Below, piece by piece: positions 831-57,271 of a DNA stretch of 64,000 nucleotides. Under the pieces are notes generated by a model. It searched no databases. It had not been told where the DNA came from and worked only from the letters and a program-made list of their open reading frames with translations. Numbering within the stretch: position 1 is the first letter of the stretch; every line of letters begins with the position of its first letter. Location of the stretch: positions 192,001 to 256,000 of the forward strand of contig JAXDQS010000003.1 in NCBI GenBank assembly GCA_034667725.1, in the 5' to 3' direction. Both the position numbers and the translations under genes were made by a program. The stretch comes from Thermoplasmata archaeon (GTDB lineage Archaea; Thermoplasmatota; E2; JACPAO01; JAHFTW01).

Positions 831-902
831 AGCCGACGAAGGGATTTGAACCCTCGACCTGCGGTTTACAAGACCGCTGCACTACCGCTATGCTACGTCG
901 GC
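831..902 (-). tRNA. tRNA-Thr(TGT)
   Basis: GCCGACG..GCGGT CT TGT AA ACCGC..TTCAAAT..CGTCGGC T. Confidence 0.95.
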
Positions 903-12428: not shown

Positions 12429-12531
12429 GGAATGATTGCACGGCGACCATAAGAACCCGCGGCCGGCAGCCGAACGGGTTCACGTCCGGCGCAGGGACAA
12501 TCCTCGTAAGCCGGCGGCAACTGGCGGCCAG

Positions 12532-14565
12532 GTGAACGGCGCGGGCGCCTCGCCGGACTTTTACCTGAAGGCGATCGCGGCGGTGGGCGCCCTGCTGTTC
12601 GGCGGCTTCGTGCTGGCGGGCGGCCCCCGGCGCCGGGCGAGCCTGTTCCTGGCCGGCTTCCTGGCGCTGATCGCCGGCAACCAGGCCGTCGAGGCCTACC
12701 GGGCGCTGGTGCCCGGCGCCTACGAGGACCTTGGGCTGTTCCGGCTGGCGACCCTGTTCGCGCTGCTGGACCCGCTGCTGCTCTACGGCTTCGCCGCCTC
12801 GTACCCGCGCCGCAACCGCCTCGCCCAGCCCGCCCGGTGGCTGCCGCTCGCCGCGGCCCCGCTGCTGCTGCTCGGGTGGGCCTTGAGTGTTGCGACCACC
12901 GACGCGGGCGACCCGCGCTTCCTCTGGGGCGAGGTCGGGCTGGCCGCCTACACGGCCGCCGCCTACCTGCAGGTCTGGGCGTGGGCGCTGCGGCGGGCGG
13001 CGGCGCGGCCCGGCTCCCCGACCCGGCTCCTGTTCGCGGGGATGTGCTGCGCCGCCATCCCGGCGTTCGAGCGGGTCAGCGGCGACCTCAGCCGCTTCGC
13101 CGACGGCCCCGCCGCCCAAGACCTCGTCAAGGTGGCCTTGTGGGCCCCGCTGGCGGCAGGCGTGCTGTGGGCCGTCGCGCGCCGGGCCCGCGGCCGCCGC
13201 ACAGGGCCGTTCCTGCTCGGCTGGGCCGGCTTCGGGCTGCTCTTGATGGTGCTGCTCAACCTGTTCTCGGCCATCGCGGTCGTCACCCGCCACGACCCTG
13301 CCCCAGAGCTTGGCGTGATCGGGCGGGCCGCCGCCTCGGTGCGCTGGCTGCTGTTCGCCGGCCTGGTGTCGGTCGCGGTGCTGCGCCACGACCTCCTGGG
13401 CCTGAGCATGGGCGTCCGCCGCGCCGCCGCCCGCGTGATGGTCGCCTTCGCCTTCGTCGTGGCCGCCGTGCTGCTCTTGGTCTCGACCAGCCCGCTTTTG
13501 GGCCCGACGGGGCCGTCGCTGTGGTTCGAGCTGGGCATCCTCGCCGCCGCCGTGCTGCTGTCGCAGGGCTTCCGCGCGGTCGTGGGCCGGGCCGCGCGCA
13601 TCCTCTACGGCGTGCCCGACCGCTCCGACCCCGCCGCCGCGGCCGACGCCTACCGGCTCGGCGTGCTGCAGGCGCTCGAGAGCGGCATGACGCCGCACGA
13701 CGCGCCCGTGCGCCGGCTGCAGGCGGAGCTCGGCCTCGACGACCGCACCGCCGCCGCCATCGCAAGGGCCGCGGGCGACGCCGTCGGCGGGCCGCTCGCG
13801 GCGGGGCAGGTGGTCGGCGGGCGGTTCCGGGTCGAGCGCTTCCTCGGCCGCGGGGGCTCCGGCCGCGCCTTCCTGGCGCACGACGAGCTGCTGCAGCGCA
13901 CCGTGGTGCTGAAGGAGGTCCTCACCGACGGCCCCGACGACGAGGCGGAGGTGCTGCGCGAGGCGCGGCTGGCCGGCGGCCTGCAGCACCCGAACGTCGT
14001 CACGGTCCACGACGTGCTGCGCCGCTCCGGCTCGATCCTGCTGGTGTCGGAGCACGTGGCCGGCGGCTCGCTCCAGCAACGACTGGCGGAGGCGCCGCCA
14101 GAGCCGGAGGAGGCGCTGGACATCGCCGATGGCGTGCTGGCCGGGCTGGAGGCGATCCACGCGCTCGGCATCGTCCACCGCGACCTCACGCCCGGCAACG
14201 TCCTGCTGCGCCCCGACGGCCTGCCGAAGATCGCGGACTTCGGCATCGCGCGCGCCCGCGCCGGCGCGGCGGGGGCCACGGCCCGCTTCGGCGACGAGCC
14301 CGTGCAGGGCACGCTCGGCTACATGGCGCCCGAGCAGCGCCGCGGCGAGCCGGCCACGCCCGCCTCCGACGCCTACCAGGCCGGCCAACTGCTGCGCGCG
14401 CTGTTCGCGGACGCCATGCCGGCCGGGCTGGCGGCGGCGGTCAAGCGGGCGCTGGCGGCCGACCCGGCGGCGCGGCCGGACAGCAAGCAGCTGCGGGCCG
14501 CGGTGCGCCGCGCCCGCGCCGCCCTCAAGCCTGGAACACCAGCGCGCTCCGGCCGACGCCGATGA
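12532..14565 (+). CDS. membrane-anchored Hanks-type Ser/Thr protein kinase
   Basis: Multi-TM N-terminus; LGRGGSG, VVLKE, HRDLTPGN, DFG, APE; start uncertain (ORF opens at 12436). Confidence 0.9.
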   Translation: MNGAGASPDFYLKAIAAVGALLFGGFVLAGGPRRRASLFLAGFLALIAGNQAVEAYRALVPGAYEDLGLFRLATLFALLDPLLLYGFAASYPRRNRLAQPARWLPLAAAPLLLLGWALSVATTDAGDPRFLWGEVGLAAYTAAAYLQVWAWALRRAAARPGSPTRLLFAGMCCAAIPAFERVSGDLSRFADGPAAQDLVKVALWAPLAAGVLWAVARRARGRRTGPFLLGWAGFGLLLMVLLNLFSAIAVVTRHDPAPELGVIGRAAASVRWLLFAGLVSVAVLRHDLLGLSMGVRRAAARVMVAFAFVVAAVLLLVSTSPLLGPTGPSLWFELGILAAAVLLSQGFRAVVGRAARILYGVPDRSDPAAAADAYRLGVLQALESGMTPHDAPVRRLQAELGLDDRTAAAIARAAGDAVGGPLAAGQVVGGRFRVERFLGRGGSGRAFLAHDELLQRTVVLKEVLTDGPDDEAEVLREARLAGGLQHPNVVTVHDVLRRSGSILLVSEHVAGGSLQQRLAEAPPEPEEALDIADGVLAGLEAIHALGIVHRDLTPGNVLLRPDGLPKIADFGIARARAGAAGATARFGDEPVQGTLGYMAPEQRRGEPATPASDAYQAGQLLRALFADAMPAGLAAAVKRALAADPAARPDSKQLRAAVRRARAALKPGTPARSGRRR

Positions 14566-15241
14566 TGTCGCCCTTCTCCAACGGATGCTGCTTGCCCTTG
14601 GCGATGGTCTCGAAGTTGAGCTGGGTGCCGTTGCGGCTGTGCGGCAGGTCCTCGATGCGGTAGCCGACGCCGTCGAACCGGATGCGGGCGTTCTCGGCGC
14701 TCACCGAGGCGTCGAAGTCGAGCGACACCGCCAGCCCGCGGCGCCGCCCGATGAGCCAGGCCGCTTCCCCCGTGGCCGGCGGCTTGAGCCCGAACACCTG
14801 GCCTTCGTCGAGGCCCTTCACCAGGACGAGGCGCGGCCCAGGGGCATGGGCCGGCGAGGGCGCCGGCGCGAACACCTGCGTGAGACCGGCCACGGGCTCC
14901 GCGGGCCGCAGCCGGGCCAGCGCGCGCACCTCCTCGCTCAACGAGAACAGCGCACGGTGGTTCACCACGTACTCCAGCGTCGTGCCACGGCCCCGGTCGG
15001 CGTCGCGCGCCACCACGATGCCCATCTCGACCAGCCGGTCCAGGTGCTGCTTGACGGTCTGGCGCGCCAGGATGCGGCCGCCCGCCTTGGTCTCCGGCCC
15101 GCGCAGCGTGATCTGGGTCACCGTCCGCGGCGTGCGCAGCTCGCGCAGCAGCCGGATGCGCGCCGGGGTCGCAAGCGCCCGCAGCGCGTCCGCGAACGCT
15201 GCCGTCGAATCCGGCGCGCCCAGAGGCTCGTCCTGGTCCAT
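14525..15241 (-). CDS. ArsR-like HTH plus FHA domain protein
   Basis: ALATPARIRLL..TVKQHLDRLVEMGIV (wHTH); IGR..SVSAENARI..SRNGT..GDIIGVG (FHA). Confidence 0.85.
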   Translation of the reverse strand: MDQDEPLGAPDSTAAFADALRALATPARIRLLRELRTPRTVTQITLRGPETKAGGRILARQTVKQHLDRLVEMGIVVARDADRGRGTTLEYVVNHRALFSLSEEVRALARLRPAEPVAGLTQVFAPAPSPAHAPGPRLVLVKGLDEGQVFGLKPPATGEAAWLIGRRRGLAVSLDFDASVSAENARIRFDGVGYRIEDLPHSRNGTQLNFETIAKGKQHPLEKGDIIGVGRSALVFQA

Positions 15242-15282: not shown

Positions 15283-16182
15283 ATGCCGGGCCGCTTGGAC
15301 GCGACCTTCTTGGCGCACGGCGGCGCGACGGCCGGCAAGGACGCCGCGGACGGCACGCAGCGCGCCTGCGCGGCCGGCCAGCGGGCGTTCCAGGAGGGCG
15401 CCTCGCTGCTGGACGCCGCGGTGCTGGCGTGCCGCGTGCTGGAGGACGACGGCCGCTTCAACGCCGGCCGCGGCAGCCAGCTCCGCCTGGACGGCAAGAC
15501 CGTCGAGATGGACGCCGCCTGCATGACCTCCGACGGCCAGTTCGGCGCCGTCATCTGCGTTGCCGACGTCCGCAACCCGATCCTGGCCGCACGCGCGGTC
15601 CACGACACGCCGCACAACGCGCTCGTCGGCGACGGCGCCACCGCGTTCGCCCGCAGCCTCGGGCTGGCGGGCCGCGAGGCGCCCTCGGAGGCCGCGGTGC
15701 GGCACGCCCTCGCGGCCCGCAAGGCGCTGCAAGAGCACGGCCACGCCCAGGAGACGGGCTGGCGGCTGGACAAGATCCTGGAGCACTGGAACTACCAGGA
15801 GCCGCCGCCCCAGGAGCTGCTCGGCTCGGACACGGTCGGCGTGGTGGCCACCGACGGGCGCGCGTTCGTGGCCGCCGCCAGCACGGGCGGCCTCAGCATC
15901 ACGCTGCGCGGCCGCGCCAGCGACGTCGGCATGCTCGGCGCCGGCATCTACGCCGGGCGGCACGGCGCCGTCGCCTGCACCGGCCGCGGCGAGTTCCTCG
16001 CCCGGTCGCTGTTCAGCCACCGCGTGTACCAAGGGCTGGCCGACGGCCTCGACGCGGGCGCCGCGATCGAGCGCGCCATGCGGGTGGTGCCCGACAAGAC
16101 CGCGGTCGGCGCCATCGCGGTCGGGACGGGCTCGGCGGCGGGGGCGGACAACTGCCGGATGCCGTGGTCGAGGGCCGGGTAG
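15283..16182 (+). CDS. isoaspartyl peptidase/L-asparaginase (Ntn hydrolase)
   Basis: HGGA, LEDD..FNAG.G, EMDAACM, DTVG nucleophile, STGG, TG.GE. Confidence 0.9.
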   Translation: MPGRLDATFLAHGGATAGKDAADGTQRACAAGQRAFQEGASLLDAAVLACRVLEDDGRFNAGRGSQLRLDGKTVEMDAACMTSDGQFGAVICVADVRNPILAARAVHDTPHNALVGDGATAFARSLGLAGREAPSEAAVRHALAARKALQEHGHAQETGWRLDKILEHWNYQEPPPQELLGSDTVGVVATDGRAFVAAASTGGLSITLRGRASDVGMLGAGIYAGRHGAVACTGRGEFLARSLFSHRVYQGLADGLDAGAAIERAMRVVPDKTAVGAIAVGTGSAAGADNCRMPWSRAG

Positions 16183-16525: not shown

Positions 16526-17131
16526 TCATTCGGTCTTCGGCGCGACGGGCGCCACGTCAAGGCCAGCCAGGCCGGCACGCTGCAGCCGACCAAGGCGGTC
16601 CGCCGTGGCGGGCTCAAGGACGAGCATGGCCCGCGCCGCCCGCTTTGGCTTGGCGGGCCAACGGGACCGCAGCATGGGCAGGCCCGGCGGCCGGTCCTCC
16701 ACCAAGGACTCGATCACGAGCTTGGACCCGATGCGCTCCAACGGGGTGGCCGACAGAAGGGCGGCCAGCTGCTTCAAGTCGTCCACGCGGCCGGTGCGCG
16801 CAAGCACCATGACATTGCAGGGCCCCGTCGTCGCGAAGGCATGCACCACGTTGGGGATGGCCTTGAGCAGGGTGGCGGCTTCCGCAAGCCGGGCGGGCGG
16901 GCAGTAGGCCTCGACGAGTGTAAGCACGGGCAGGCCGACGAGCGCCCAGTCCACGGTCGCCTCGAAGCCCAGAAGGACGCCATGCGCCTCCAGGCGGGCC
17001 ACACGGTCCTGGACCGTGCGCTCGTTGCAGCCGATGGCCTCCGCCACCTCGCGCAACGGGCTGCGGCCATGGGTTGACAGCACTTCCAGGATCCTCCGGT
17101 CTGTGTCGTCCAAGGCCCAGGGGCGTGCCAT
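16526..17131 (-). CDS. Lrp/AsnC family transcription regulator
   Basis: LDDTDRRIL..GR.PL.EVAEAIG..TV..RV.RLE..GV; RAM domain TTG. Confidence 0.88.
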   Translation of the reverse strand: MARPWALDDTDRRILEVLSTHGRSPLREVAEAIGCNERTVQDRVARLEAHGVLLGFEATVDWALVGLPVLTLVEAYCPPARLAEAATLLKAIPNVVHAFATTGPCNVMVLARTGRVDDLKQLAALLSATPLERIGSKLVIESLVEDRPPGLPMLRSRWPAKPKRAARAMLVLEPATADRLGRLQRAGLAGLDVAPVAPKTE

Positions 17132-17486
17132 GGCGTGTGCCATGCGCGCTCCAGCGGTTAGGGAGGCGCCCGTGCGCACATGTTGGGGTCCTGGGTCGGG
17201 TTTGCAGCACGGCGCCCAAGGGGTCGAGCCGGAATTTTGGCCAAAACCCGCAAAGTGCGTTGGGCCCGAGGCCAGCGCAGCAGCCGATGCAACCAAGGCG
17301 GAGTAGGTTTCGCCATGGATTTTGACCTTCACCGAGAATATACCGCGAGCAAATCGCTCTACAGGCGGGGTATGAGGCTCGTCAGACACAAGGTGGCATT
17401 TGGGGAACGGGCTTCGCCACCTGAAAGCCGCCATTCATTCCGCCCCCCTTCCCATATTTAGCCTGCCTCGCCTTCGCATCGCCGCT

Positions 17487-18707
17487 ATGGATCAGACCGA
17501 GCGCGCGGTGTTGAACTGGTTGAAGGCGCACCGGTCCAGCACGCCTTCCCCAGGCACGGCGCATCTGCCCGGCGACAAGGTTGGAATGCGACCCTTCGTT
17601 CTCGCGTCCGTCCCGCTGGCCAAATTGGACTTCCAAGACCACCGCTTCAACCCACGCACGCCAAGTCCGGCCAAAGTGAATGAACTCTCCGCGTCTATCC
17701 GTTATCTTGGTCTCCTCACCCCGCTGACGTGCTGCTACATCGAGGAGGAGGACAAGGTTGTCCTGATTGATGGCCGCCACCGGTATGGCGCATTGAAGTC
17801 GCTAGCCCAGGAAGACGCGGCGTGGGCGAAGGAAGCGGAGGTGGACGTGAAAATCTACTATCGCCTCCTAGTGAGCGACATCTACATTCTCGCCACCTAC
17901 CTTAACCGCACGCGACGCAACCTGAAGAAGGGCGAATACTACCAGGTAATCGTCAACATCTACGAGAATAAGCAGCAAGAATTGGAGAGCGAAACACGGA
18001 AGAAGCACACCGAAAAGGAGATTTTTGGCAAGATTAGCCATCGCGAACTCACTGATCGCAACTTCGACCTTTCCATTGGGCGCCTTGTCGGCATTGCAGC
18101 CTTCGATGAAGAAGAGGACGACGCCTGGTTCCCCTACGTTGGCAATCACCAGAGCGCCCGCGTCCAAAACGATTCGAGCCGCGGCTATTGCCCTTTGACC
18201 GCGGGCAACCTCGCATCGTTCCTACGGTTTCTCTGCAAGGCCCAGCCTTACGACGATGTTGGCCAAGCGCGTGCAATCGAACTCGCAAACGTCATCGAAT
18301 TGGGCCGCATTTTCCACAAAGGACTGTTGGAGCCCGTGGAAAGTTACATGCAAGCGACCGCTACTACTGTTGCCTGCAAGCACTGGCCACTCGTGGCATT
18401 TGGTCACCTACTCCGCGACTCCTCCATCTTTGCGGACCGCGAAGCAAAGTCCGCGCCGTTTGCAACCACGCTCAAGGCGAGCCAGAAGACCATGCTTACC
18501 AAGGCCGTAGCCGCTTACAAACAGGTAATGGCGGAACAGGCCACGCTGATTCAGGAGTTCAAGGAATCAGACAACGACCAAGACATCCTGCGAAAGGCAT
18601 GGAGTTACCAGACGCAAAAGAACTTGATTCTGGGCTATCTCAAGGACGAACTTGAGGCAAGGGTCACCGGGTTCACTGCCAAAATCGCGGAAGATGACCA
18701 AGAATGA
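17487..18707 (+). CDS. ParB/Srx (DGQHR/DndB-like) domain protein
   Basis: FNPR..VNELSASIR..GLLTPL..VLIDGRHRYGAL..LN; long unknown C-terminus. Confidence 0.75.
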   Translation: MDQTERAVLNWLKAHRSSTPSPGTAHLPGDKVGMRPFVLASVPLAKLDFQDHRFNPRTPSPAKVNELSASIRYLGLLTPLTCCYIEEEDKVVLIDGRHRYGALKSLAQEDAAWAKEAEVDVKIYYRLLVSDIYILATYLNRTRRNLKKGEYYQVIVNIYENKQQELESETRKKHTEKEIFGKISHRELTDRNFDLSIGRLVGIAAFDEEEDDAWFPYVGNHQSARVQNDSSRGYCPLTAGNLASFLRFLCKAQPYDDVGQARAIELANVIELGRIFHKGLLEPVESYMQATATTVACKHWPLVAFGHLLRDSSIFADREAKSAPFATTLKASQKTMLTKAVAAYKQVMAEQATLIQEFKESDNDQDILRKAWSYQTQKNLILGYLKDELEARVTGFTAKIAEDDQE

Positions 18708-20041
18708 CTGCCACTGATGCGTTCTTGAAAAACGCGGGCGTTCCGTTCGACGCGGCGACTGCGATGGTCAATGCATGGCCGATTGCACCCGATGCCGGCG
18801 GGGAGTTGAATGCGGCCGCAAAGCGGGTATCCTCGCTTGCACAGTTGGCTGTCGGCGAAGACAGCGACTGGCCCACCAAACAGAACATCCTGGAACGAAG
18901 TAGACTGGGCATCTACTCTCCCGTTCAACTCGTCCTGCTTGAGGCTGCAAACGCGACTCCTGCGAGCACCGACCTTGAGTATCCTTTCGCTTTCAGCAGC
19001 GTCGGGCTTGCAACAGAACTGCTGGTCAAAACACTTCAACGCGAGCCAAATCCTACGGGCACAACGGGATGGCCCCCCACCGATAGCACATCCTACGACA
19101 AGACCCGCCGCCTTCTTCAGTCGATGTTCCAGCAGCGCGAAGTCCGGGAGGAAGGTGAACCGCCGTCAATGGAAATCATCATCCCAATGGCGGAGGACGA
19201 CGCAGCACTTCCTCAAGTGACGTCCAAAAAACTCGGGCAGGTGTTCGGTCGCGGCGTGGCCATGCTTCAAGGAAGTGGATTGGCGACATTGCCCGCATCT
19301 GGCGGCCAGGTCTTCGAAATTTTCCAAACCCACGACACCGCACCCGGCACTAATCTCTACACGTTGGAGGAATCGTTCTCGCACCTTCCGGAGCGCAAAA
19401 TGTCGTTGACCTTGCGCCGAGACGGTCATGTGACTATTGCGATGGACAAGAATCCAATCTTGGAGTTCTACAACGGCGGCTGGCACATCTGCGACCTGAA
19501 GTATTCTAGGATCGCCCTGCAAGCCATTGCTCAGGCCGCATTCGGAACCGCCGTGCGCCCCGAAATCTTGCCCCGCATCCTCACCCTTGCTTACCACATG
19601 GCCACGCACGGTCACGGTGGAATCATCGGAGTAGTTCCGGAGGCCGTCGCGGCAGGCGCCGATTCCACCATCGTTGAGTTTGAACCGCAATCGCCGGAAA
19701 GCATCGGGGTTACGAACGCCATTCGTGCGGTCAAGGACAAGATGAAACTGACGGGCGACCTGACGATTGATCGCCTAGCGCAGATCGGCTTTGGTCGGTT
19801 GCTCCTGGCGGCCAACCTTCAGGATGGTGCGACCTTGTTCTTGCCCGATGGCCATTTCCACTCCTCGGGTAGAATGGTGAAACGGATTGCGGCCGGAGCG
19901 GGTGGCGGTTCTGGAGCCCGCGCGGCAAAGGGGATTGGCGCCGCCGGATTGGCCATCAAGATTAGCGAGGACGGCGCTATCAAGGTCTATTCCAGCATGG
20001 GTGGGGACAAGACCCCCGATGATGGACTGCGCATCCACTGA
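18704..20041 (+). CDS. DisA_N/diadenylate-cyclase-fold protein with N-terminal domain
   Basis: HGGIIGVVP, QDGATLF and LAIKISEDGAIKVY match DAC motifs; RHR position reads GSGARAA; ATGA-coupled to the upstream gene. Confidence 0.7.
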   Translation: MTATDAFLKNAGVPFDAATAMVNAWPIAPDAGGELNAAAKRVSSLAQLAVGEDSDWPTKQNILERSRLGIYSPVQLVLLEAANATPASTDLEYPFAFSSVGLATELLVKTLQREPNPTGTTGWPPTDSTSYDKTRRLLQSMFQQREVREEGEPPSMEIIIPMAEDDAALPQVTSKKLGQVFGRGVAMLQGSGLATLPASGGQVFEIFQTHDTAPGTNLYTLEESFSHLPERKMSLTLRRDGHVTIAMDKNPILEFYNGGWHICDLKYSRIALQAIAQAAFGTAVRPEILPRILTLAYHMATHGHGGIIGVVPEAVAAGADSTIVEFEPQSPESIGVTNAIRAVKDKMKLTGDLTIDRLAQIGFGRLLLAANLQDGATLFLPDGHFHSSGRMVKRIAAGAGGGSGARAAKGIGAAGLAIKISEDGAIKVYSSMGGDKTPDDGLRIH

Positions 20042-20042
20042 A

Positions 20043-20660
20043 CTACGCGGAAACCACGAGATTGGGCACGTCCTTGATTTCCTCCGTGACGTGCGATTTG
20101 AATGCCGCAGCGACTGGACCGAACACTTCACGGTATGGCTTGGGGGGAAGGAAGGCGACCGCCGCAGCGTATTTTCGGCGAATGACGCCAAGGACAGTGG
20201 CTGTCCGAACACGCAAGTCCTGCTTGTGAGCCACGCTCGTCAACTCCGATAAGCGCATGTCGTAACTCACAATCTCGGGCAACGACTCATGGCGCCAATG
20301 CACAGGGTCAAACAACCTGCTGAGCGTAATTCGGTCAAAGTCTCGGCCTTCCGCCGCGCCGTTTGCGTTCAATAAATCGATGGTCCTCTGATGAGGCCTG
20401 GAGGAGCGGTAGGGTCGCTGCTTGGTGCAGCCTAGGATCAGAAGCACCGAGCCTAGGCTTGAATTCGGATACCGGTAATCGGATCGTTTGTTGGCTGGCG
20501 CCCCGCTTGCGGTTAGCCCCGCAGGCACAGTTCTCTTGTAGCGACGAGTTTCGTCCGCCAGTCGGCGTTCTCACGTAGCAAGATTGTGAAGCGCAAGTGC
20601 CGCAAGGACGTCGGACTTGTTGACTTGCTGTTCGCCAAGTCTCAACTTCCTTGGCAATCT
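20043..20660 (-). pseudogene. disrupted TGT/ArcS-like (DUF5591) gene remnant
   Basis: One frame reads DVLAALALHNLAT*ERRLADE..LLILGCTKQRPYRSSRPH..; TGA at 20571-20573; further 5' part missing. Confidence 0.55.
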
Positions 20661-20806
20661 GCGATTTGGTCAGCCCTTGCCTGGCCAGGCCCGCTATGCG
20701 GTGGAGCATCGCTTCATCCAGAAGGGGATGCGAGCCCCGCTTGATGGGCGGCGGTTGGGGCGCTTCCATGCCCGTTTGTGGGGCATGGGAATCCAAAAGC
20801 CTATAG

Positions 20807-20879
20807 TGGTCGAGCCGGGATTTGAACCCGGGTCGGAAGAGTGAGAGTCTTCCATGATTGGCCGCTACACTACTCGACC
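20807..20879 (-). tRNA. tRNA-Glu(CTC)
   Basis: GGTCGAG..GAAGA CT CTC AC TCTTC..TTCAAAT..CTCGACC A. Confidence 0.95.
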
Positions 20880-20940
20880 TGAGGCAGGCCCGTCCAGGGG
20901 CTGCAAGGGCGCGCGACTTGGCGACCTGATTTAACCCCTT

Positions 20941-21408
20941 TCACCAGGTGCGCGGCGGCTCCTCGTGGACTTCGAGGTAGACCTTGGCTTTCTTGCCGGT
21001 GGCGAGGCCGAAGCCGGCGTCGATGCTGGCCCAGTCCCAGGCGAGGCGTTCGCAGAGGCCGGCGAGCGAGCCGGGGCGTTCGGGGAGGATGACTTCGCGG
21101 ACCTCGCGGGCTTGGAAGTGGTAGGCGTTGGCGTCGAGGGCGTGCTTGGCGGCCTTGAGGTCGCGGGTGAGGAGCTGGACGCCGCCTTGGTTGGCGACGA
21201 AGCCTTCGAGGTTGACGCTGGCTTCGGCGAGGGCGCCGGCGAGGCGGGCGAGGGCGCCGCGTTCGTTGGGGAGGTGGACGTGCAGGAGGTGGAAGCCGGT
21301 GGCCTTGGAGCCCTTGGCCTGGACCGTGACGGGCTTGGCAGGCTTGGGGGCGGGCTTGGCGGCCTTCTTGGGCGGCGCGCGCTTGGGGGCGGCCTTGCGG
21401 GTGGGCAC
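20941..21408 (-). CDS. tandem ACT-domain protein with Lys/Pro-rich N-terminus
   Basis: LPNERGALARLAGALAEASVNL and LPERPGSLA ACT repeats. Confidence 0.75.
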   Translation of the reverse strand: MPTRKAAPKRAPPKKAAKPAPKPAKPVTVQAKGSKATGFHLLHVHLPNERGALARLAGALAEASVNLEGFVANQGGVQLLTRDLKAAKHALDANAYHFQAREVREVILPERPGSLAGLCERLAWDWASIDAGFGLATGKKAKVYLEVHEEPPRTW

Positions 21409-32141: not shown

Positions 32142-32372
32142 ATGCCCTACGAACACAAGACGAAGAAGGGGACCTATGTCCTGGCGACGCGCAACGTCGA
32201 GCTGAAGGGTGGCCGCAAGCAGCAGATCTACTTCTTCTGCAAGACCGGCGCCAAGCTCAAGCCCGGCTGCAAGTGGTCCGAGATGCCCGCCGGCAAGAAG
32301 GTCGGCATCAACGCCCGCACCGGCCTCCCCTTCCTGGCCAACGCGGTCGCGACCAAGAAGGCCGCGAAGTAA
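32142..32372 (+). CDS. small basic protein
   Basis: 76 aa Lys-rich MPYEHKTKKG..KGGRKQQIYFF..RTGLPFL; GGAGG SD; pyrimidine-rich trailer. Confidence 0.8.
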   Translation: MPYEHKTKKGTYVLATRNVELKGGRKQQIYFFCKTGAKLKPGCKWSEMPAGKKVGINARTGLPFLANAVATKKAAK

Positions 32373-33331: not shown

Positions 33332-33638
33332 AACCCCGTCGCTTCAGGACGACTGACGGTAGCCCGCAAGGGCGGCTGAGGAAGGTCTCCGCATCTGCGC
33401 GCAAGCGCAACCTGCCGCCTCAAGGCGGTGTCTGGAGACGGACAGGGCTGGCGCAGAAACGACACAGCCGCGGGGCTGGGATGAAGGGGTCGCCCCGGAC
33501 GTCCCCCACGGACTTGCTGAAACGTGCCATGGCCTCAGGGGATGCAAGTCGCAAGGACGCTTAGTCGGATGTCGTCTGGCCGGCGGTCGTGAGGCCGCCC
33601 GGCGAAACAGAACGGAGCCTACTCGAGGCTGCGGGGTT
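33332..33638 (+). ncRNA. rnpB: RNase P RNA
   Basis: GAGGAAGGTCTCCG pairs with ACAGAACGGAGCCT (P4); P1 and P2 pairings; GCAGAAAC and GAAAC junctions; TATA-like ggttat about 27 nt upstream. Confidence 0.9.
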
Positions 33639-35573: not shown

Positions 35574-35639
35574 GCCGCCTGCGGGTTCCTTTTTCCCCTC
35601 CTCCCAACCTTTTTGCAAGCGGCCCAGGTCGCGCGGCCC

Positions 35640-36380
35640 GTGAAGGACGCGCTCGCGGCATTCTACCACCGGCACCGCGTCCGCCGCCCGCGCACGCCGC
35701 CGGCCGGCCCCCGCGACCCCGTGCGGCTGGTGTGCTTCGACATGGACGGCGTCCTCATCGACGTCGGCTCGTCGTGGGTGATGGTGCACAAGCACTTCGG
35801 CGTCCAGAACGAGGCCAGCCTGCGGGCCTACCTCAACGGCGAGTTCGACGACCGCGAGTTCATCCGGCGCGACGCGGCGCTGTGGCTGCGGCTGCGGCCC
35901 AAGCTGGCGCGGGCCGACTTCGAGGAGATCTTCCGCGTGCCGCCGTTCATGCCGGGCGTGCAGGCGACGGTGGCGGCGCTGCGGGACGCCGGCGTCGAGA
36001 TGGCGATCGTCTCGGGCGGCGTCGACATCATGGCGGAGGAGGTGGCGCGCCGCCTCAGCATCCCGCGCGTGGCCGCCAACGGCTTCGAGTACGACGCCGC
36101 CGGGCACATCACGGGCGAGGGCGTGGTGCGGACGCCGCTCAACGACAAGGCCGCGCCGGTGGTGCGGTTCGCCGAGGAGTCGGGGATCCCGCTGCGCAAC
36201 GTCGCCTGCGTCGGCAACTCGCTGCCGGACGTGTCGATGTTCGAGGTGGCGGGCCGCAGCATCGCGTTCCACCCCGAGGACGACTACACCCGCGAGCACG
36301 CCACTTGGGTCGTCGAGCAGGGGCCGCTCGACCAGGTCGTGCCGCTGCTGCTCACGGCCGCTTCCGCTCGGCCACCTTGA
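35640..36380 (+). CDS. HAD-IB phosphatase (phosphoserine phosphatase-like)
   Basis: FDMDGVL, VSGG, K, GNS..D. Confidence 0.85.
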   Translation: MKDALAAFYHRHRVRRPRTPPAGPRDPVRLVCFDMDGVLIDVGSSWVMVHKHFGVQNEASLRAYLNGEFDDREFIRRDAALWLRLRPKLARADFEEIFRVPPFMPGVQATVAALRDAGVEMAIVSGGVDIMAEEVARRLSIPRVAANGFEYDAAGHITGEGVVRTPLNDKAAPVVRFAEESGIPLRNVACVGNSLPDVSMFEVAGRSIAFHPEDDYTREHATWVVEQGPLDQVVPLLLTAASARPP

Positions 36381-39057
36381 CGGCCGCGTCGTCCTCCTGG
36401 CCGGCGCGCCGCAGCGGCCGGGGCCGTGCGGCCGGGCGGTCGGCGGGGTGGCCGGCGGCGCGGGCGGCGTGCTCCTGCACCAGCTCCAGGCCGGCGCGGA
36501 CGTCGTCCAGCTGAAGGACCACGAGGTCGCCGGGCTGGGCGAGGGCGAGGGCGCGCTCGATGGCGACGCGCTCGGAGTCGGCGGTCTCGAGGCGGGCGGC
36601 GTCGAAGCCCGTGTCGAGGATGCCTTGCCGCAGCACGGCCATGGTCTCGCCCGGGGCGCGGCGGCGCGGGTCCGGGTCGGAGAGCAGGATGTGGTCGTAC
36701 ATGGTGGCGAGCTTGGCGCCGAAGGCGAGGATGTCCTCGTCGCGCCGGTTGCCGGAGGCGTTGGCGGCGGCGATGACGCGGCCGCCGCGGCGCAGGCCGT
36801 CCACGACGCCTTGGAGGGCGGCCAGCGCGGGCGCGTTGTGGCCATAGTCCACCAGCACCTGGACCGGGCCGACCTCGAGGAGGTTCATGCGGCCGGGCAG
36901 CGCGCTTGGCGACGGCGTGAAGCCGCGCAGCGCCGCGTCGATGGTCGCGACCGGGACGCCGAGGGCGCGGCAGGCGGCGACGGCGGCCATCGCGTTCTGG
37001 ACGTTGAAGCTCGCGACCCCGCCCATCGTGACGGGATAGTCGCGCACGTCGCCGACGGTCTCGTCGCCGTTGCGGTCGCGCAGCACGATCTCGGTGCCGA
37101 CGACGGTGACGGCGGTGCCGCTGCGGGCCACATGCTCGGTGAGCTCGCGGCCGGCGGGGTCGAGGCCGAACAGGATGGTGCGGCAGCGCAGCGTGTCGGC
37201 GTAGCGCGCAACCGCCGGGTCGTCGGCGTTCAGCACGGCGGTGCCGCTGCGGGCGACGTTCTCGACCACGACCGCCTTGAGCTCGGCGAGGTCCTGCAAG
37301 GTCTCGATGCCGCCCTCGCCGAGGTGGTCGCTTGCGACGTTGAGGAACACGCCGACGTCGGCGCGGTCGTAGCCGAGGCCGCGGCGGAGGATCCCGCCGC
37401 GGGCGACCTCCAGCACGGCGTGGTCGACCAGCGGGTCGGTCAGCACGGCGCGGGCGCCGTCGGGGCCGGAGTAGTCGCCTTCGAGGGCGGGCTCGCCGTC
37501 GATCTCGACGCCCGTCGTGGTGGCGATGCCGACCCGGCCGCCGGCCGCGGCCAGGATGTGGCTCACCAGGCGGACGGTGGTGGTCTTGCCGTTGGTGCCC
37601 GTGATCGCGACGATGGGGATGCGGCCGTCGGCGCCGTTCGGAAACAGCATGTCCACGATGGGGGAGCCGACGTTGCGCGGCCGGCCGACGGTCGGCTGGG
37701 CGTGCATCCGCAGGCCGGGCGCCGCGTTGACCTCCACGACGCCGCCGCGGGTCTCTGCGAGCGGGCGCGCGAGCGTGGGGGCGACGATGTCGAGGCCCAT
37801 GATGTCGAGGCCGACCATGCGGCTGACGCGCTCGGCCATCCGGCGCACCAAGGGGTGGACCTCGTTGGTGACGTCGGTGGCCGTGCCGCCGGTGCTGAGG
37901 TTGGCGGTGCCCTTCAGGATCACGGCCTGGCCGGCGGCGGGGACCGACTCCAGGCCCATGCCTTGGCGGTTGAGCTGGCGGTGGCTCTCGGCGTCGATCT
38001 CGATGCGGGTGAGCCAGGACTCGTGGCCGTCGGCGCGGCGCGGGTCGGCGTTGGCCTCTTCCACCAGTTGCGCGACGGTGCGGCGGCCGTCGCCGACGAC
38101 CTGCGCGGGGTCGCGGCGGGCGGCGGCGATGAAGCGGTGGCCGACGACAAGGACGCGGAAGTCGGCGCCCTCCAGGTGCTGCTCGACCAGGACGGCGGCG
38201 TCGACCTCGCGGGCGGCGGCGAACCCGATGGCCAGCTCGGCGGGCGTGCGCAGCCCGGTGGAGACGCCGCGGCCGTGGTTGCCGACGCGGGGCTTGACGA
38301 CGACGGGGTAGCCCAGCTCGTCGGCGGCCTCCAGGGCGCCTTCGAGCGAGTGGACCAGCTCGCCGCGCGGGACCGGCACGCCGGCCTCCTCCAGGATGGC
38401 CTTGGTGCGGTCCTTGTCGTCGGCGATCTCGCAGCCGATGCAGCTGGTGTTGCCGGTGAGCGACGCCTGGATGCGCTGCTGCCGGGCGCCGTGGCCGAGC
38501 TGGAGGTAGCTGGAGGCGTTGAGGCGCAGCACCGGGATGCCGCGGCGGCGCGCCTCGCCGACGATGGTGTTGGTGGACGGGCCGAGGCTTTGGCGGCGGT
38601 GCAGCGCCTCCAGGTGCTCGGTGACGGCCTTGACGTCGAAGGGGACGCCTTGCAGCACGGCCGTGACGAGGTCCACGGCGGCAAGCCCTGCCTCCAGGCC
38701 GGCCTCCTCGGTGCGGTAGCGGTAGACCACGGTGTAGACGCCGGGCTCGTGGGTCTCGCGGGTCTTGCCGAAGCCGACCTTGAGGCCGGCCATGCACTGC
38801 AGCTCGATGGCGACGTGCTCGACGACGTGGCCCATGTAGGTGCCTTCGGCGAGGCGCTCGGCGAAGCCGCCGACGTGGCCGCGGCTGCAACGGTGCTCGC
38901 GCAAGGTCGGCAGCAGCTCGAGCAGCCGCTCGTTGAACCCGGGCACCGCGTTGCTGGGCGTGGCGGCGTGCTCCTCCAGGTCCAGGCGCATGAAGACGGT
39001 CGGGTAGGGCGAGTAGTGGTTCGGGCCTGGGATGGCGCGTTGTTCGAGGACCTTCAT
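36352..39057 (-). CDS. cphA: cyanophycin synthetase CphA1
   Basis: N domain GPN..HRCS..HVVEHVAIELQ; ATP-grasp VVKP..GNHGRG and EVNAAPG; Mur-like ITGTNGKTTT, EVARGG, DHLG, VDYGHN; 901 aa. Confidence 0.95.
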   Translation of the reverse strand: MKVLEQRAIPGPNHYSPYPTVFMRLDLEEHAATPSNAVPGFNERLLELLPTLREHRCSRGHVGGFAERLAEGTYMGHVVEHVAIELQCMAGLKVGFGKTRETHEPGVYTVVYRYRTEEAGLEAGLAAVDLVTAVLQGVPFDVKAVTEHLEALHRRQSLGPSTNTIVGEARRRGIPVLRLNASSYLQLGHGARQQRIQASLTGNTSCIGCEIADDKDRTKAILEEAGVPVPRGELVHSLEGALEAADELGYPVVVKPRVGNHGRGVSTGLRTPAELAIGFAAAREVDAAVLVEQHLEGADFRVLVVGHRFIAAARRDPAQVVGDGRRTVAQLVEEANADPRRADGHESWLTRIEIDAESHRQLNRQGMGLESVPAAGQAVILKGTANLSTGGTATDVTNEVHPLVRRMAERVSRMVGLDIMGLDIVAPTLARPLAETRGGVVEVNAAPGLRMHAQPTVGRPRNVGSPIVDMLFPNGADGRIPIVAITGTNGKTTTVRLVSHILAAAGGRVGIATTTGVEIDGEPALEGDYSGPDGARAVLTDPLVDHAVLEVARGGILRRGLGYDRADVGVFLNVASDHLGEGGIETLQDLAELKAVVVENVARSGTAVLNADDPAVARYADTLRCRTILFGLDPAGRELTEHVARSGTAVTVVGTEIVLRDRNGDETVGDVRDYPVTMGGVASFNVQNAMAAVAACRALGVPVATIDAALRGFTPSPSALPGRMNLLEVGPVQVLVDYGHNAPALAALQGVVDGLRRGGRVIAAANASGNRRDEDILAFGAKLATMYDHILLSDPDPRRRAPGETMAVLRQGILDTGFDAARLETADSERVAIERALALAQPGDLVVLQLDDVRAGLELVQEHAARAAGHPADRPAARPRPLRRAGQEDDAAVKVAERKRP

Positions 39058-39998
39058 GCGTTCGACGGCTCCTTCCGGATCGAGGGGGCGGGCTTGGGGA
39101 GGACGGCGTGCGCGCCGTTGGGCGGGAGGGCGCCGTTGGTGGCGCCTTCCGGGGGGACGAGGGGCACCGGCTGGGGCGGCGGCCTGAGGTAGCGGCGCTC
39201 GCCGAGGTGGAAGCCGTGGCCGGCGACAAGGGTATGGACCGTGATGTTCTCGACCGCGATGGGCTCGTGCAGCGCGATGTCGGTGAGGTTGGTGTAGCGC
39301 AGGTCGTGGCCGTCCACCAGCACCACGACGCCCTTGCCGAACACCTCCAGCTCCTCGCCGTGGCGGACGATGATGCCGGTGTCCTCGCCGAGGCCGACGC
39401 CCATGAGGCCGGGGTTCGAGGCGACGACCTCCAAGAGGCGGCTCAGGCGGCCCCGGTCGAGGAAGTGGGTGTCGAGGACGGCCTTGCTGATGAGGCCCAG
39501 GCCCGGCGTCATCTGGACGGAGCCCTTGCGCATGCCGCGGTTGGGCTCGCCCTCGAAGATCATGGTGGCGCTCATGGCGGCCGCCCCCGCCGAGGTGCCG
39601 GCCACGACGCCGCCGTTGCGGTGGTGGTGCCGGATGGCCGCGGCGACCGCGGTGCCGCCCAAGAGCGTCGTGAGGCGGAGCTGGTCGCCGCCGGTGAAGA
39701 ACACGACGTCGCAGTCGCGCACCCGGTCCACGTACTCCTGCAGGTCCGCGGCGCGGCGGTCCCGGATGTCCATGACCTCGACCTTGGGGATGCCGAGGGC
39801 GCCGAACGCCTTGCGGTACTCGACGGCCATCTGGTCGGGGAACTGGCTGGCGGTCGGGATGACCTCGACGTGGCGCGTGCCGCCGGCCGGCAGCTCGCAC
39901 ATCTGCTTGAGGACGGCCTTGCCGAACTCCTTGTCCTCGTTGCCGCCGATGGCCACCAGGAAGCCGAGCGGCGGCGACCGCAACGGGCCCTCGGTCAC
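39054..39998 (-). CDS. cphB: cyanophycinase
   Basis: IGGNEDK, FTGGDQLRL, GTSAGA, DTHF..RGR..RL, GLGEDT. Confidence 0.93.
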   Translation of the reverse strand: MTEGPLRSPPLGFLVAIGGNEDKEFGKAVLKQMCELPAGGTRHVEVIPTASQFPDQMAVEYRKAFGALGIPKVEVMDIRDRRAADLQEYVDRVRDCDVVFFTGGDQLRLTTLLGGTAVAAAIRHHHRNGGVVAGTSAGAAAMSATMIFEGEPNRGMRKGSVQMTPGLGLISKAVLDTHFLDRGRLSRLLEVVASNPGLMGVGLGEDTGIIVRHGEELEVFGKGVVVLVDGHDLRYTNLTDIALHEPIAVENITVHTLVAGHGFHLGERRYLRPPPQPVPLVPPEGATNGALPPNGAHAVLPKPAPSIRKEPSNA

Positions 39999-40954
39999 TT
40001 GGCGGCCTCCGTGAGGGCGGCCCACGCCATGTCGCGGTTCGAGCCGCCGGCGTAGCGCTTGCCCCAGAGCAGGATGACGCCGACGTCCACCAGGTCGGGG
40101 AACATCTTGAGGGCGTTCTCGACCGCCTTCTTCGGGCTGGTGCCGGACTCCAGGTCCTGGTGGATGCGGAACGAGAGGATCTTGCGGGCGAGGAAGTCGC
40201 CGTCGCCGGTCACGGCCACGGCGCCGCGCTCGCTGGCGTAGATGCCGCAGCCGATGAGCGGCACGTCGCCGACGCGGCCCAGGAGCGTGCTGATGGTGCC
40301 GCCCGTCGAGCTGGCGGCGGCGTAGGTCTTGCCGTCGGTGCACACACAGCCCACCGTGTCCGAGCCGCCGCCCATGGCCTCCTTGAGGTCGCGGGCGTAG
40401 TTCCAGTGCGACGCCAGGCTGGGCAGGTCCCACGCGTACTCCTGCGCCTGCGCCTTGGCGAGCCGCAGCACCTTGAGCACCTGGGTGTACTTCTGGCGCG
40501 CCAGTTCGGTGGTCGGGTCGTACTCCTCGAAGCCGCGGGCGCGGGCGTAGACGATGGCGCCGTCCCCCGCCAGCAGGTTGTGCGGCGTCTCGTGCAGCAG
40601 GCGCGCGACCCGGACCGGGTTCTTGACGCCCCGGATGTTGGTGACGCCGCCGAACTTGCCGTCGGAGGTCATGCAGGCGGCGTCCATCTCGATGGTCTTG
40701 CCGTCGAGGCGCAGGTTGGAGCCGGTGCCGGCGTTGAAGCGCGGGTCGTCCTCCAGGTGCGCGCAGCCGGCCACGGCCGCGTCCAACGGCGTCCCGCCCT
40801 TCCGGAGGACCTCCATGCCTGCGCGGCACGCCGCCTCCGGCCCGTCGACCTCGGTGCGGCTCGAGCCCGCGCCGCCGTGGGCCAGGATGGCGCGCCGGAG
40901 CTTGGGGGCCTTCGCCACCGTGGGCGGCGAGACGTACCTGCGGGTGGGGCTCAT
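39995..40954 (-). CDS. iaaA: isoaspartyl dipeptidase (Ntn/asparaginase_2)
   Basis: HGGAG, FNAGTG, DTVG, STGG, GRVGD, TGDG; first gene of the cph operon. Confidence 0.9.
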   Translation of the reverse strand: MSPTRRYVSPPTVAKAPKLRRAILAHGGAGSSRTEVDGPEAACRAGMEVLRKGGTPLDAAVAGCAHLEDDPRFNAGTGSNLRLDGKTIEMDAACMTSDGKFGGVTNIRGVKNPVRVARLLHETPHNLLAGDGAIVYARARGFEEYDPTTELARQKYTQVLKVLRLAKAQAQEYAWDLPSLASHWNYARDLKEAMGGGSDTVGCVCTDGKTYAAASSTGGTISTLLGRVGDVPLIGCGIYASERGAVAVTGDGDFLARKILSFRIHQDLESGTSPKKAVENALKMFPDLVDVGVILLWGKRYAGGSNRDMAWAALTEAAK

Positions 40955-41158
40955 GCGCCGCCGGGCACCGGGCCGCTTGCGGTTGAGGGTTGCGCCCGCG
41001 GCTCCCGATTGCCCACGCCAACCCGTTGCCGGCATCGCAAGCAAGGTCGTTGGGGCCCGGCGAGCCACGATTAGCCAGAATCTACAAATGGTTGCATGCA
41101 AAGCGGGCCAGGATTGTCCAAAAACGAGACAAAGGCCCTGTTCCCTGCCGCCCCTCGG

Positions 41159-41734
41159 ATGACCGAGCCGCCGCCGACCCGCCTCCACCCGCTGCGCGTC
41201 CTGGAAAGCCCCATGCGCGCCGCCATGGTCGCCGCCGTCCTCGACACCCCAGGATTGTTCCTGGGCGAGCTGGCCGCCCGCGTCGGCTGCTCGCGCGCCA
41301 CCGCCCGCCACCACCTCAAGGTGCTGCGCCGCGCCGGCCTCCTGAGCATCGTCTCCTGGGGCCGCCGCACCGCCGTGTTCCCCGCCACCATGCAGACGGC
41401 CGAGCAGGACGCCTGGGCCGCCTTGCAGCGCGGCCGCACCATGGACCTCGCCCGCCTGGTGCGCGCCGAGCCCGGCCTCGTGCAGAAGGAGATCACCGCC
41501 CGCCTCGGCCTCACCCGCAAGATGCTGCGCCGCTACGTCGACGCCCTGGTGCTCGGCGGCCTGCTGCAAGAGCTCGAGGACCCGCCGTTCCGCACCTACC
41601 ACCCCACTCCGCTCCTAGGCCTCCTGCTCGACCTGGGGACGCCGGCAGGGATGATGGTGCCCGAGGCCGTCTGGATCGAGGAGAAACCCGACGACGAGGA
41701 GCTCGTGAAGGCGGCCACGGCCGGTCGCGTCTAA
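41159..41734 (+). CDS. double winged-HTH transcription regulator
   Basis: PG..LGELA..ATARHHL..L and PG..QKEI..LG..L..YV..L; divergent from the cph operon. Confidence 0.8.
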   Translation: MTEPPPTRLHPLRVLESPMRAAMVAAVLDTPGLFLGELAARVGCSRATARHHLKVLRRAGLLSIVSWGRRTAVFPATMQTAEQDAWAALQRGRTMDLARLVRAEPGLVQKEITARLGLTRKMLRRYVDALVLGGLLQELEDPPFRTYHPTPLLGLLLDLGTPAGMMVPEAVWIEEKPDDEELVKAATAGRV

Positions 41735-41759
41735 ACGCCCCCCACGCATCCGCAGGGCG

Positions 41760-42389
41760 ATGGCGCGAACGACCGGGACGGCCGTCCTGATGGCGCTCGC
41801 GGGAGCGGCCATCCTGGCGGGCGGCGTGCTGCATCCGCAGGTGCCGCCGGAGCCCGGCGACCAACAGGCCGCCATCGCGGCGTCCACCCTGTGGGCGCCG
41901 GCGCATTGGCTGCTGACCCTCGGCCAGGCCGCGGCCGTGGCCTGCGTGGCCATGGTCGCCGTCGTCGCCGCCCGTTCCGCGCTGGCCGTCGCGGGCGGCG
42001 CGGCCTTGGCGCTTGGCTTGGCGTTCGGCGTGCTCGGCACCCTGCTTGCGGCCACGGGGCTCCGGGCCGCCGCCGTCAGCGGCGACACGGCGGCGTTCGC
42101 GGCCTGGGGCGACGCCGCCATGGGCGTCGGCTGGCTGTGCCTGCTGCTGTCGGCGGCGGGTGCCGCCGCATGGGGCTGGGACATGATGCGCGCTCCCTGG
42201 CTGCTGCCAAAGCTGGGCGCCTTGGTGCTGCTGGCCGGAAGCCTGCTGTTGCTGGTTGCCGCCGCAGCGGTCCCCTACGACCACTGGTGGACGCACCAAT
42301 ACGTCCTGCGGGCCGGCGCCCTGGGGCTGGGCGTGGGGCTGCTGGGGCTTGCGGCCGCCTGGCGGGCTAGGCCTTCGGCAGCGGCTTGA
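41760..42389 (+). CDS. membrane protein
   Basis: About 6 TM, LHP and W..AH motifs. Confidence 0.6.
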   Translation: MARTTGTAVLMALAGAAILAGGVLHPQVPPEPGDQQAAIAASTLWAPAHWLLTLGQAAAVACVAMVAVVAARSALAVAGGAALALGLAFGVLGTLLAATGLRAAAVSGDTAAFAAWGDAAMGVGWLCLLLSAAGAAAWGWDMMRAPWLLPKLGALVLLAGSLLLLVAAAAVPYDHWWTHQYVLRAGALGLGVGLLGLAAAWRARPSAAA

Positions 42390-56212: not shown

Positions 56213-57271
56213 GTGGACCCCGGCGAGAAGCTCAAGCACATGGTGTTCCCGCGCCACGTGCTGGTGGGCACGCGCGCGCTCGACCGCCTGGGCGACACCG
56301 TCTCCGACCTGGAGCTGGACCCGACCGGCGTCGTCGTGGTCGACGCCAACACCCGTCGCCTGGTGGGCGACCGCGTGCTGCGGAGCCTGGAAGGGTCGGG
56401 CTTCGTGCCGCACTTCTACGAGTCCACCGGCGCCACCATGAAGTCGGTGCAGGCCTGCATGAGGCTCGGCAAGAAGGTGGGCGCATCGTGGTACATCGGC
56501 GCCGGCGGCGGCTCGGTCATCGACGTCGCCAAGCTCGCGGCCCACCAGCACGGCCCAGCGTTCGTGTCGGCGCCCACCTCCGCCTCGCACGACGGCATCT
56601 GCTCCGGCCGCGCCAGCATCAAGGAGAACCGCGGCAGCGTCAGCCTGGAGGCCAAGCCGCCCGCGGCCATCGTCGCCGACACCGAGATCATCGCCAAGGC
56701 GCCCTACCGGATGCTCGCAGCCGGCTGCGCCGACGTCATCTCCAACCTCACCGCCGTCCTGGACTGGAAGCTGGCGCACCGCCTCAAGGCCGAGGAGTAC
56801 TCCTCGTTCGCCGCCGTCCTTGCCCGCACCGCCGCCGAGCAGGTCGTCGAGAACACCGCCATCATCCGCCCCGGCATCGAGGAGGCCTGCTGGCTCGTCG
56901 TCAAGTCGCTGGTGGTCTCGGGCGTCAGCATGGCCGTCGCGGGCAGCAGCCGCCCCGCCTCCGGCGCCGAGCACCTCTTTGGCCACGCCATCGACCGCCT
57001 CAGCCCCGGCCCCATGCACGGCGAGGTCGTCGGCGTCGGCAGCATCCTCACCATGAACCTGCACGGCGGCGACTGGGAGTCCATCCGCAACGCCTTGCGC
57101 GAGGTCGGCGCCCCCACCACGGCCAAGGAGCTCGGCGTGCCGCCCAAGAAGGTCATCGAGGCGCTCATGACCTGCCACAAGATCCGGCCGGAGCGCTACA
57201 CCATCCTGGGCGAGTCGGGCCTCACCAAGGAAGCCGCGACCCGGGTGTGCAAGGTCACGGGCGTCTGCTAG
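56213..57271 (+). CDS. egsA: glycerol-1-phosphate dehydrogenase
   Basis: GGGSVID, SHDGI, SRPASGAEH..H, HGE, RYTILG. Confidence 0.93.
   Translation: MDPGEKLKHMVFPRHVLVGTRALDRLGDTVSDLELDPTGVVVVDANTRRLVGDRVLRSLEGSGFVPHFYESTGATMKSVQACMRLGKKVGASWYIGAGGGSVIDVAKLAAHQHGPAFVSAPTSASHDGICSGRASIKENRGSVSLEAKPPAAIVADTEIIAKAPYRMLAAGCADVISNLTAVLDWKLAHRLKAEEYSSFAAVLARTAAEQVVENTAIIRPGIEEACWLVVKSLVVSGVSMAVAGSSRPASGAEHLFGHAIDRLSPGPMHGEVVGVGSILTMNLHGGDWESIRNALREVGAPTTAKELGVPPKKVIEALMTCHKIRPERYTILGESGLTKEAATRVCKVTGVC

Follow-up and report, generated by a model that had tools for sequence, protein, structure and literature searches.

Cyanophycin is treated as a bacterial polymer, and we asked whether a soil archaeon makes and reuses it as well. 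The question arises from a window of 64,000 nucleotides (the whole stretch of DNA analyzed here, G000:C3:192001-256000), in which three consecutive minus-strand ORFs within 36352-40954 had been predicted to form a complete cyanophycin operon, iaaA-cphB-cphA1 (Table 1). Judging from sequence comparison and from analogy with characterized enzymes, we consider it very likely that these genes allow a Thermoplasmatota archaeon from soil to run a functional cyanophycin cycle inside its cells, which would place this nitrogen-storage polymer in soil and sediment archaea.

Table 1. Features of the window, numbered from its first nucleotide (residue numbers for the protein domains)
Feature	Position	Strand	Remarks
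Second stand-alone IaaA paralogue	15283..16182	+	46% identical; GRASDV in place of GRVGDV; 24 kb from the operon
Archaeal RNase P RNA (rnpB)	33337..33633	+	RF00373
HAD phosphatase (PSP-like)	35613..36380	+	Convergent flank, 29-nt overlap with the cphA 3' end; outside the module
cphA1	36352..39057	-	Cyanophycin synthetase 1, 901 aa
CphA1 Pfam domains	residues 22-134; about 211-341; 484-695; 721-847		Cyanophycin_syn; ATP-grasp; Mur_ligase_M; Mur_ligase_C
cphB	39054..39998	-	Cyanophycinase, GTG start, 314 aa
iaaA	39995..40954	-	319 aa, Ntn-hydrolase of the plant-type asparaginase / isoaspartyl aminopeptidase kind
Double winged-HTH gene	41159..41734	+	Divergent from the operon
Ether-lipid genes	about 46-49.4 kb		GGGP synthase (TIGR01769 over cut-off), GGR-family reductase (TIGR02032 over cut-off)
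UbiA-type DGGGP-synthase-like gene	about 46-49.4 kb		Under cut-off
egsA-family gene (PF13685)	about 56267-56704		Some 15 kb from the operon

The ORF list reproduces the predicted three-gene layout and its coordinates, with a 4-nt GTGA overlap at the iaaA/cphB junction (...GCCAAGTGACC) and a 4-nt ATGA overlap at the cphB/cphA junction (...GAACGCATGAAG), and the profile scores given below agree with the predicted motifs. The operon is a predicted single co-translated unit, and it is intact and probably functional. Its codon usage is host-like, as had been proposed: GC3 is 0.97-0.99 across iaaA, cphB, and cphA, and the CAI-like index of the operon genes (0.84-0.86) lies within the range of host housekeeping genes (0.72-0.90) and far from that of a foreign island at 17-20 kb (0.26-0.31). 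A recent foreign island as the origin of the operon was rejected on GC content and codon usage. A promoter and terminator scan, which models sigma-70 promoters while the host is archaeal, found nothing beyond chance. The divergent double winged-HTH gene is unsupported as a regulator, since it has many paralogues in the genome and is absent next to the operon in relatives. As a separate observation, the low-GC island of the window (17000-21000; 57-59% versus about 72%, with foreign codon usage) ends near a tRNA (20807-20879) and contains, by eye, a ParB/DGQHR-like ORF (17400-18707) followed by one whose C-terminal part resembles DisA/diadenylate cyclases (18704-20041); it is possibly a defence or mobile cassette.

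CphA1 scores 1100.7 bits against TIGR02068 (cut-off 850), covering model positions 1-861 of 862, and 1088 bits against NF010623 (cut-off 877); together with the Pfam layout, this confirms the ATP-grasp plus Mur-ligase identity originally read from its motifs. The chain unites an N domain, a G (ATP-grasp) domain, and an M (MurE-like) domain, followed by a disordered tail (871-901). Unlike in CphA2, the P-loop of the M domain is intact (GTNGKTT at 487), and the alignment also shows intact EVARGG, DHLG, DYGHN, and GNRRD motifs. The zinc site of the N domain, Cx19HxxEH, is complete (C57, H77, E80, and H81, plus H55 and R68), and this is the motif that confers primer independence on SuCphA1 (PMC9262961). 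R100 of the Su enzyme corresponds to K98 in the archaeal protein, and mutation of R100 in SuCphA1 did not cut primer-independent activity (PMC9262961). In the G domain, E215 and R309, both shown to matter in bacterial CphA1 (PMC9427784), align with E210 and R301. The AlphaFold model (pLDDT 91.5) matches TeCphA1 (7wae) with a TM score of 0.90, whereas CphA2 reaches no more than about 0.55.

A different arrangement of the synthetase is seen in sister genera, which carry a tandem second copy (L104, L105, L107, L109-L114, and L328, in G014, G016, G017, G018, G022, G024, G028, and G354). In the first copy, the N and G sites are retained and the M-domain motifs are altered (mostly DFGHN; GNRLxx, GNRRTE, or SGERLAK where GNRRDE would be expected). 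The second copy lacks the N-domain zinc motif, keeps all M-domain motifs and, except in G016, has lost G-domain residues of about 315-393 together with the EVN motif. From their motifs, sister genera seem to split Asp and Arg ligation between tandem paralogues, and such pairs would allow the two ligase steps to be studied in naturally occurring single-activity enzymes. The tandem pair of Ralstonia (L190) parallels this arrangement, yet it has a separate origin on the tree. In a relative of family f15 (L135:12836-16230), iaaA-cphB-cphA precedes one further copy each of cphB and cphA, and this additional cphA is divergent and lacks the N-domain zinc motif.

CphB scores 245.5 bits against TIGR02069 (cut-off 126.6) and contains GTSAG at 134, DTHF at 176, and GEDT at 204, giving a Ser-His-Glu triad of S136, H178, and E205, in agreement with the predicted cyanophycinase. 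By alignment, its catalytic domain begins at about residue 11, too close to the N terminus to accommodate a signal peptide, and no signal sequence was seen, whereas CphE has one; the C-terminal tail is of low complexity. The genome also encodes a second, stand-alone cyanophycinase (L119:8526-9398, which is C10 368525-369397; TIGR02069, 252.5 bits), directly upstream of 2-oxoacid:ferredoxin oxidoreductase-like genes and with orthologues in G002 and G009.

The third gene was less straightforward. IaaA matches Pfam Asparaginase_2 with 207 bits (cut-off 27) and the E. coli-type equivalog NF007589 with 99 bits, below its cut-off of 567, so that the Ntn isoaspartyl dipeptidase originally proposed has the Ntn/type III asparaginase fold and motifs and falls outside the E. 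coli type. The protein has HGGAG at 26, a D199-T200 junction, and T217, R227, D230, T249, and G250; its start may lie a few codons later, as relatives' proteins begin near residue 20. An Asp precedes the nucleophile, versus the Gly-Thr cleavage junction of the E. coli type. The Asp-Thr junction also occurs in glycosylasparaginase and taspase 1, and we rejected both assignments because these families rank below type III asparaginases and isoaspartyl peptidases in sequence as well as in the fold of the predicted model. Relative to the Asp-binding or catalytic set of E. coli IaaA (T179, T197, R207, D210, S211, T230, and G231; PMC10206079), six of the seven residues are kept, and the S211 position is Val. 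Because of this exchange, the identity of only about 30% to characterized enzymes, and the score against NF007589, we infer the substrate, beta-Asp-Arg, from gene context; the enzyme would work like IaaA even though it lies outside the E. coli-type equivalog. On the tree, it falls into a clade of its own, marked by the Asp-Thr junction, whose members travel with cph genes. The stand-alone paralogue in the window lies divergent from a putative regulator gene with winged-HTH and FHA-like domains by eye (14525-15241), which adjoins a gene for a membrane protein with, again by eye, a C-terminal Ser/Thr kinase-like domain (12436-14565).

We then considered the age of the operon, which had been predicted to be an old acquisition. 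The CphA1 and CphB trees, suggested as a check in the original prediction, as well as the IaaA tree, place the copy of this genome (G000) as sister to those of its own genus. In G001, G002, G009, and a contig from JGI, the operon lies downstream of SPP-PRC genes and is followed by an aminotransferase gene where the contig extends far enough. This site is empty and rearranged in G000 (C10, 57-60 kb), where a search for an operon remnant on C10 returned only short chance matches, and the position beside the HAD-rnpB-gcv block is not used by the operon in any other genus member. The present site is new in this genome. In a contig of a congener (L134:1-7937), an HNH/NUMOD4 endonuclease gene and genes without annotation surround the operon, suggesting an inserted element at the ancestral site.

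The history is also not simply vertical. On the EF-2 tree, G000 is nested within species that lack the operon (99/98), and the operon proteins are 62-67% identical to those of congeners, whereas flanking genes reach 66-84% and EF-2 92%. CphA1 of the host genus groups with family f15 (100/98) and not with other genera of its own family, and monophyly of the CphA1s of this family is rejected (AU p 0.003, LG+G4, for a group tested after the tree was seen); this suggests hidden paralogy or a transfer from one archaeal lineage to another. Together with the empty site on C10, these observations speak for a loss in the G000 lineage followed by regain from another Thermoplasmatota, a scenario compatible with our main explanation that we regard as possible but somewhat doubtful: G000 is still sister to its own genus in three gene trees, the codon usage of the operon is fully host-like, and relocation with several losses, whose number gaps in the MAGs may inflate, fits the same data. 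We therefore keep the predicted old acquisition with a restriction; as far as trees and gene order tell, the operon is old in Thermoplasmatota but patchy, and it has moved in this genome. Among relatives, pN is smaller than pS in all pairs, with pN/pS of 0.16-0.43 among unsaturated close pairs; selection on the branch of G000 itself is unmeasurable because synonymous sites are saturated, with GC3 near 0.97.

At greater depth, most Thermoplasmatota CphA1s fall into one clade (100/98) that includes an Obscuribacterales-labelled group and long-branched halophilic bacteria, with an Elusimicrobiota-labelled pair as its sister. Archaeal monophyly is neither shown nor rejected (49/27), and the position of the halophilic bacteria beside the other genera of the host family has support of 93/91 in a mixture model and 80 in a quick tree, without resolution when fewer rows are used. 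These trees were built without cyanobacterial sequences and from homologues chosen by closeness to the query, which biases the sampling. The halophilic or marine CphA1s (L022-L091, from Roseivivax, Roseovarius, Halovibrio, Desulfobacteraceae, and Trueperaceae, plus P0064 and P0114) come from several phyla and form one long-branched group inside the Thermoplasmatota-dominated clade; transfer of CphA1 from archaea to these halophiles is possible. In two genomes of family f28 (L167 and L171, in G284 and G273), CphA1 lies outside the main clade, so that Thermoplasmatota gained CphA1 at least twice; in a further locus (L184, in G265), cphB-cphA precedes a more distantly related Ntn gene (32%). The nearest bacterial cph clusters carry IaaA of the Asp-Thr clade (51% identity for L331; clade support 98/98), and the three genes therefore probably travelled together as a unit. 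Bacteria are the most likely source of this unit, which would have reached Thermoplasmatota at an early time and would then have undergone losses, moves, and probable exchange between archaeal lineages.

To what extent iaaA belongs to the cph genes can be seen from their distribution. cphA, cphB, and iaaA occur together in the same 11 of 41 genomes (this genome and 40 relatives), while 29 of the 30 genomes without cph gave no iaaA match at 1e-10 and the remaining one gave a weak partial match. The stand-alone second copies of cphB (G000, G002, and G009) and iaaA (G000, G001, and G009) are likewise found in cph-bearing genomes only. On the EF-2 tree, the cph trait needs five changes, three of them forced by well-supported branches; the co-occurrence thus amounts to 3 to 5 independent changes, to which gaps in the MAGs may add false losses, and significance is unreachable for an independent-pairs test with three pairs. 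The view that iaaA is a general isoaspartyl-repair or asparaginase gene merely sitting beside cphBA draws on the promiscuity that IaaA and IadA from bacterial cph clusters have retained (PMC10206079) and on members of the wider subfamily outside cph clusters. We consider it unlikely, since in the host family iaaA is gained and lost with cphA and cphB, its stand-alone paralogues too are confined to cph-bearing genomes, and the Asp-Thr clade is also represented in cph clusters elsewhere, namely, in family f15 and in the nearest bacteria.

Extending the search with the CphA profile to 401 Thermoplasmatota genomes, as the original prediction had proposed for archaea, we found CphA1 over cut-off in 35 and matches at 1e-100 in 41. 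CphA1 thus occurs in about 9-10% of the sampled genomes of an under-reported host group; in a published survey, cphA1 was present in 6% of complete bacterial genomes (PMC10206079). The three-gene form was found in families f1, f3, and f15, and the loci examined in f4, f13, f23, and f30 have cphB-cphA without a nearby iaaA. No correlation of cph with argG was evident, argG being present in most of the host family.

By analogy with the bacterial enzymes, the cycle would run as follows. The ATP-grasp domain of CphA1 would add Asp to the backbone and the MurE-like domain Arg to the new side chain, each using ATP, and the zinc site of the N domain would cut short primers, making an outside primer unneeded. 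In the cytoplasm, CphB would release dipeptides of beta-Asp-Arg, from which the Ntn enzyme, once self-cleaved (Thr200), would free Asp and Arg. Arg could be supplied by the host argC/argF/argG/argH genes or by peptides and broken down by arginase (rocF), with the polymer buffering an uneven supply of nitrogen and arginine. At 545-555 kb of C3, the host has a cluster of argC, argG, argH, and an ornithine carbamoyltransferase-family gene, and an arginase gene is located on C10, suggesting that the store can be both filled and drained; the operon of G002 has an arginase-family gene about 6 kb downstream. In cyanobacteria, PII is the control point for arginine supply. Neither a PII gene nor arginine deiminase was found in the 90%-complete MAG. 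Because the genes for synthesis and breakdown are predicted to be co-translated, the switch between the two is probably located at the level of substrates or enzyme activity. The same enzymes could also serve another end, with Lys or another amino acid replacing Arg or with the polymer acting as a nitrogen sink or stress protectant, and the soil habitat, the missing PII match, and the ability of bacterial CphA1s to incorporate Lys, Orn, and Glu in heterologous hosts (PMC8050183) would agree with this. We find it quite improbable, given that the synthesis gene is joined to both degradation genes, which fits reuse, that the residues tied to recognition of the Arg side chain (the E215 equivalent) are retained, and that the host has de novo arginine genes.

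All of this presupposes that the operon is archaeal. The window is part of a 666-kb contig of a 2.3-Mb MAG (90% complete, 0.7% contaminated), for which the best sequencing run is a soil metagenome. No 16S rRNA was found in the MAG; the same contig encodes an archaeal EF-2, and related contigs of the same genus or family are labelled "Thermoplasmatota archaeon" in NCBI, labels on which the taxonomic placement is based. The archaeal neighbours named in the original prediction (rnpB, ether-lipid genes, and egsA) were recovered by matches to RF00373, TIGR01769, TIGR02032, and PF13685, with the DGGGP-synthase-like gene remaining under cut-off. The HAD gene adjoins rnpB and gcv genes throughout the genus, and between rnpB and gcvH lies a 76-aa gene (32143-32372) that is 74-99% conserved across the genus and has no Pfam match. 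The proposed check of coverage and linkage revealed no chimeric junction. A 146-kb JGI contig, possibly from the same sample, matches the operon and its surroundings with 100% identity across 22,706 nt, and zero-mismatch Logan unitigs, probably from the source run, bridge HAD-cphA (36186-37245), cphA-cphB (38402-39959), and iaaA-HTH (40663-42208) at a depth of 9.4-11.4, against 8.7-13.7 in the flanks; as both may share the source sample, they are a check on the assembly and not on the biology. Independent proof of archaeal residence comes from genus members that carry the operon among eIF-1A, RIO1, and STT3 genes. A bacterial fragment mis-assembled or mis-binned into the MAG is extremely improbable even though the soil sample is complex, the operon adjoins the HAD gene in none of the relatives, and no single unitig spans the whole stretch, because the second assembly and the evenly covered unitigs agree, the cphA stop falls inside the archaeal HAD gene, and the closest homologues of CphA1, CphB, and IaaA all come from the host genus. 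The operon belongs to its archaeal host and is not a chimera.

The original prediction further held that cyanophycin metabolism had not been described for archaea, and this has to be corrected. NCBI annotation names Thermoplasmatota homologues "cyanophycin synthetase," a 2018 preprint states in one line that Heimdallarchaeia LC_2/LC_3 encode cyanophycin synthesis and degradation genes (bioRxiv 10.1101/385732), and a study on Culexarchaeia reports a cyanophycinase, stating that there is no experimental evidence in archaea (PMC9723716). In contrast, CphA was specific to bacteria in the sample of a 2025 survey (PMC11915815), and another survey covered bacterial genomes only (PMC10206079). Our literature search found nothing joining "cyanophycin synthetase" with Thermoplasmatota and no biochemical work on an archaeal CphA1 or other archaeal cyanophycin enzyme, in line with the original prediction, which a prior characterization of archaeal CphA1 would have refuted. 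What is known, then, is that archaeal cph genes are annotated; what is new, from sequence comparison, is an IaaA in a distinct clade with an Asp-Thr junction that accompanies them. The enzymes themselves look ordinary. Members of this clade are candidates for "missing" isoaspartyl dipeptidases, which surveys using E. coli-like queries could miss. A broader picture would combine Thermoplasmatota as an old, major cyanophycin reservoir (about one genome in ten), an Asp-Thr peptidase clade dedicated to, and possibly specific for, beta-Asp-Arg, a split synthetase independent of that in Betaproteobacteria, and passage of cphBA to halophilic bacteria (Roseivivax, Halomonas, and Chromohalobacter, with CphA1s inside the archaea-dominated clade); that all of these hold jointly is speculative, and we rate it as doubtful.

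Compared with known systems, CphA1 most resembles the characterized cyanobacterial enzymes of Synechocystis sp. UTEX2470 (7LG5 and 7TXV) and Trichodesmium erythraeum (7WAE), with which it shares the N-G-M architecture (42-44% identity, TM 0.85-0.90), the full Cx19HxxEH primer site, and the G and M motifs. It differs from them in its host, in the exchanges of R100 to Lys and H308 to Phe (DFR for DHR), and in its extra disordered C-terminal tail. CphB gives full-length matches to 7UQV and Synechocystis 3EN0 (E values of 2e-59 and 2e-49) with the triad common to all, and differs in its longer low-complexity tail and in having a second stand-alone paralogue in the genome, on contig C10. The archaeal reports on Heimdallarchaeia and Culexarchaeia likewise concern cyanophycin genes in MAGs, but from other phyla and, for the latter, degradation only; operon anatomy, a tree, and an isoaspartyl peptidase are absent from the parts of these sources that were available.

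The closest parallels to the whole operon are bacterial. The cphA1-cphB-iaaA cluster of Roseivivax halodurans (RhIaaA, 8DQM; PMC10206079) unites the same three functions, with a CphA1 of about 50% identity that falls into the same large clade. Its iaaA, in contrast, is divergently oriented and encodes a protein with a Gly-Thr junction that is about 36% identical and outside the clade of the archaeal IaaA, suggesting that the third gene was recruited separately. Clusters of uncultured bacteria, namely, iaaA-cphA in an Obscuribacterales-labelled MAG (whose contig begins just upstream), cphB-iaaA-cphA in the Tad-pilus-bearing L331, and that of an Elusimicrobiota-labelled MAG, are closer in this respect: their CphA1s lie in or beside the same clade and they have the Asp-Thr IaaA in common with the archaeal operon, while gene order or orientation differs.
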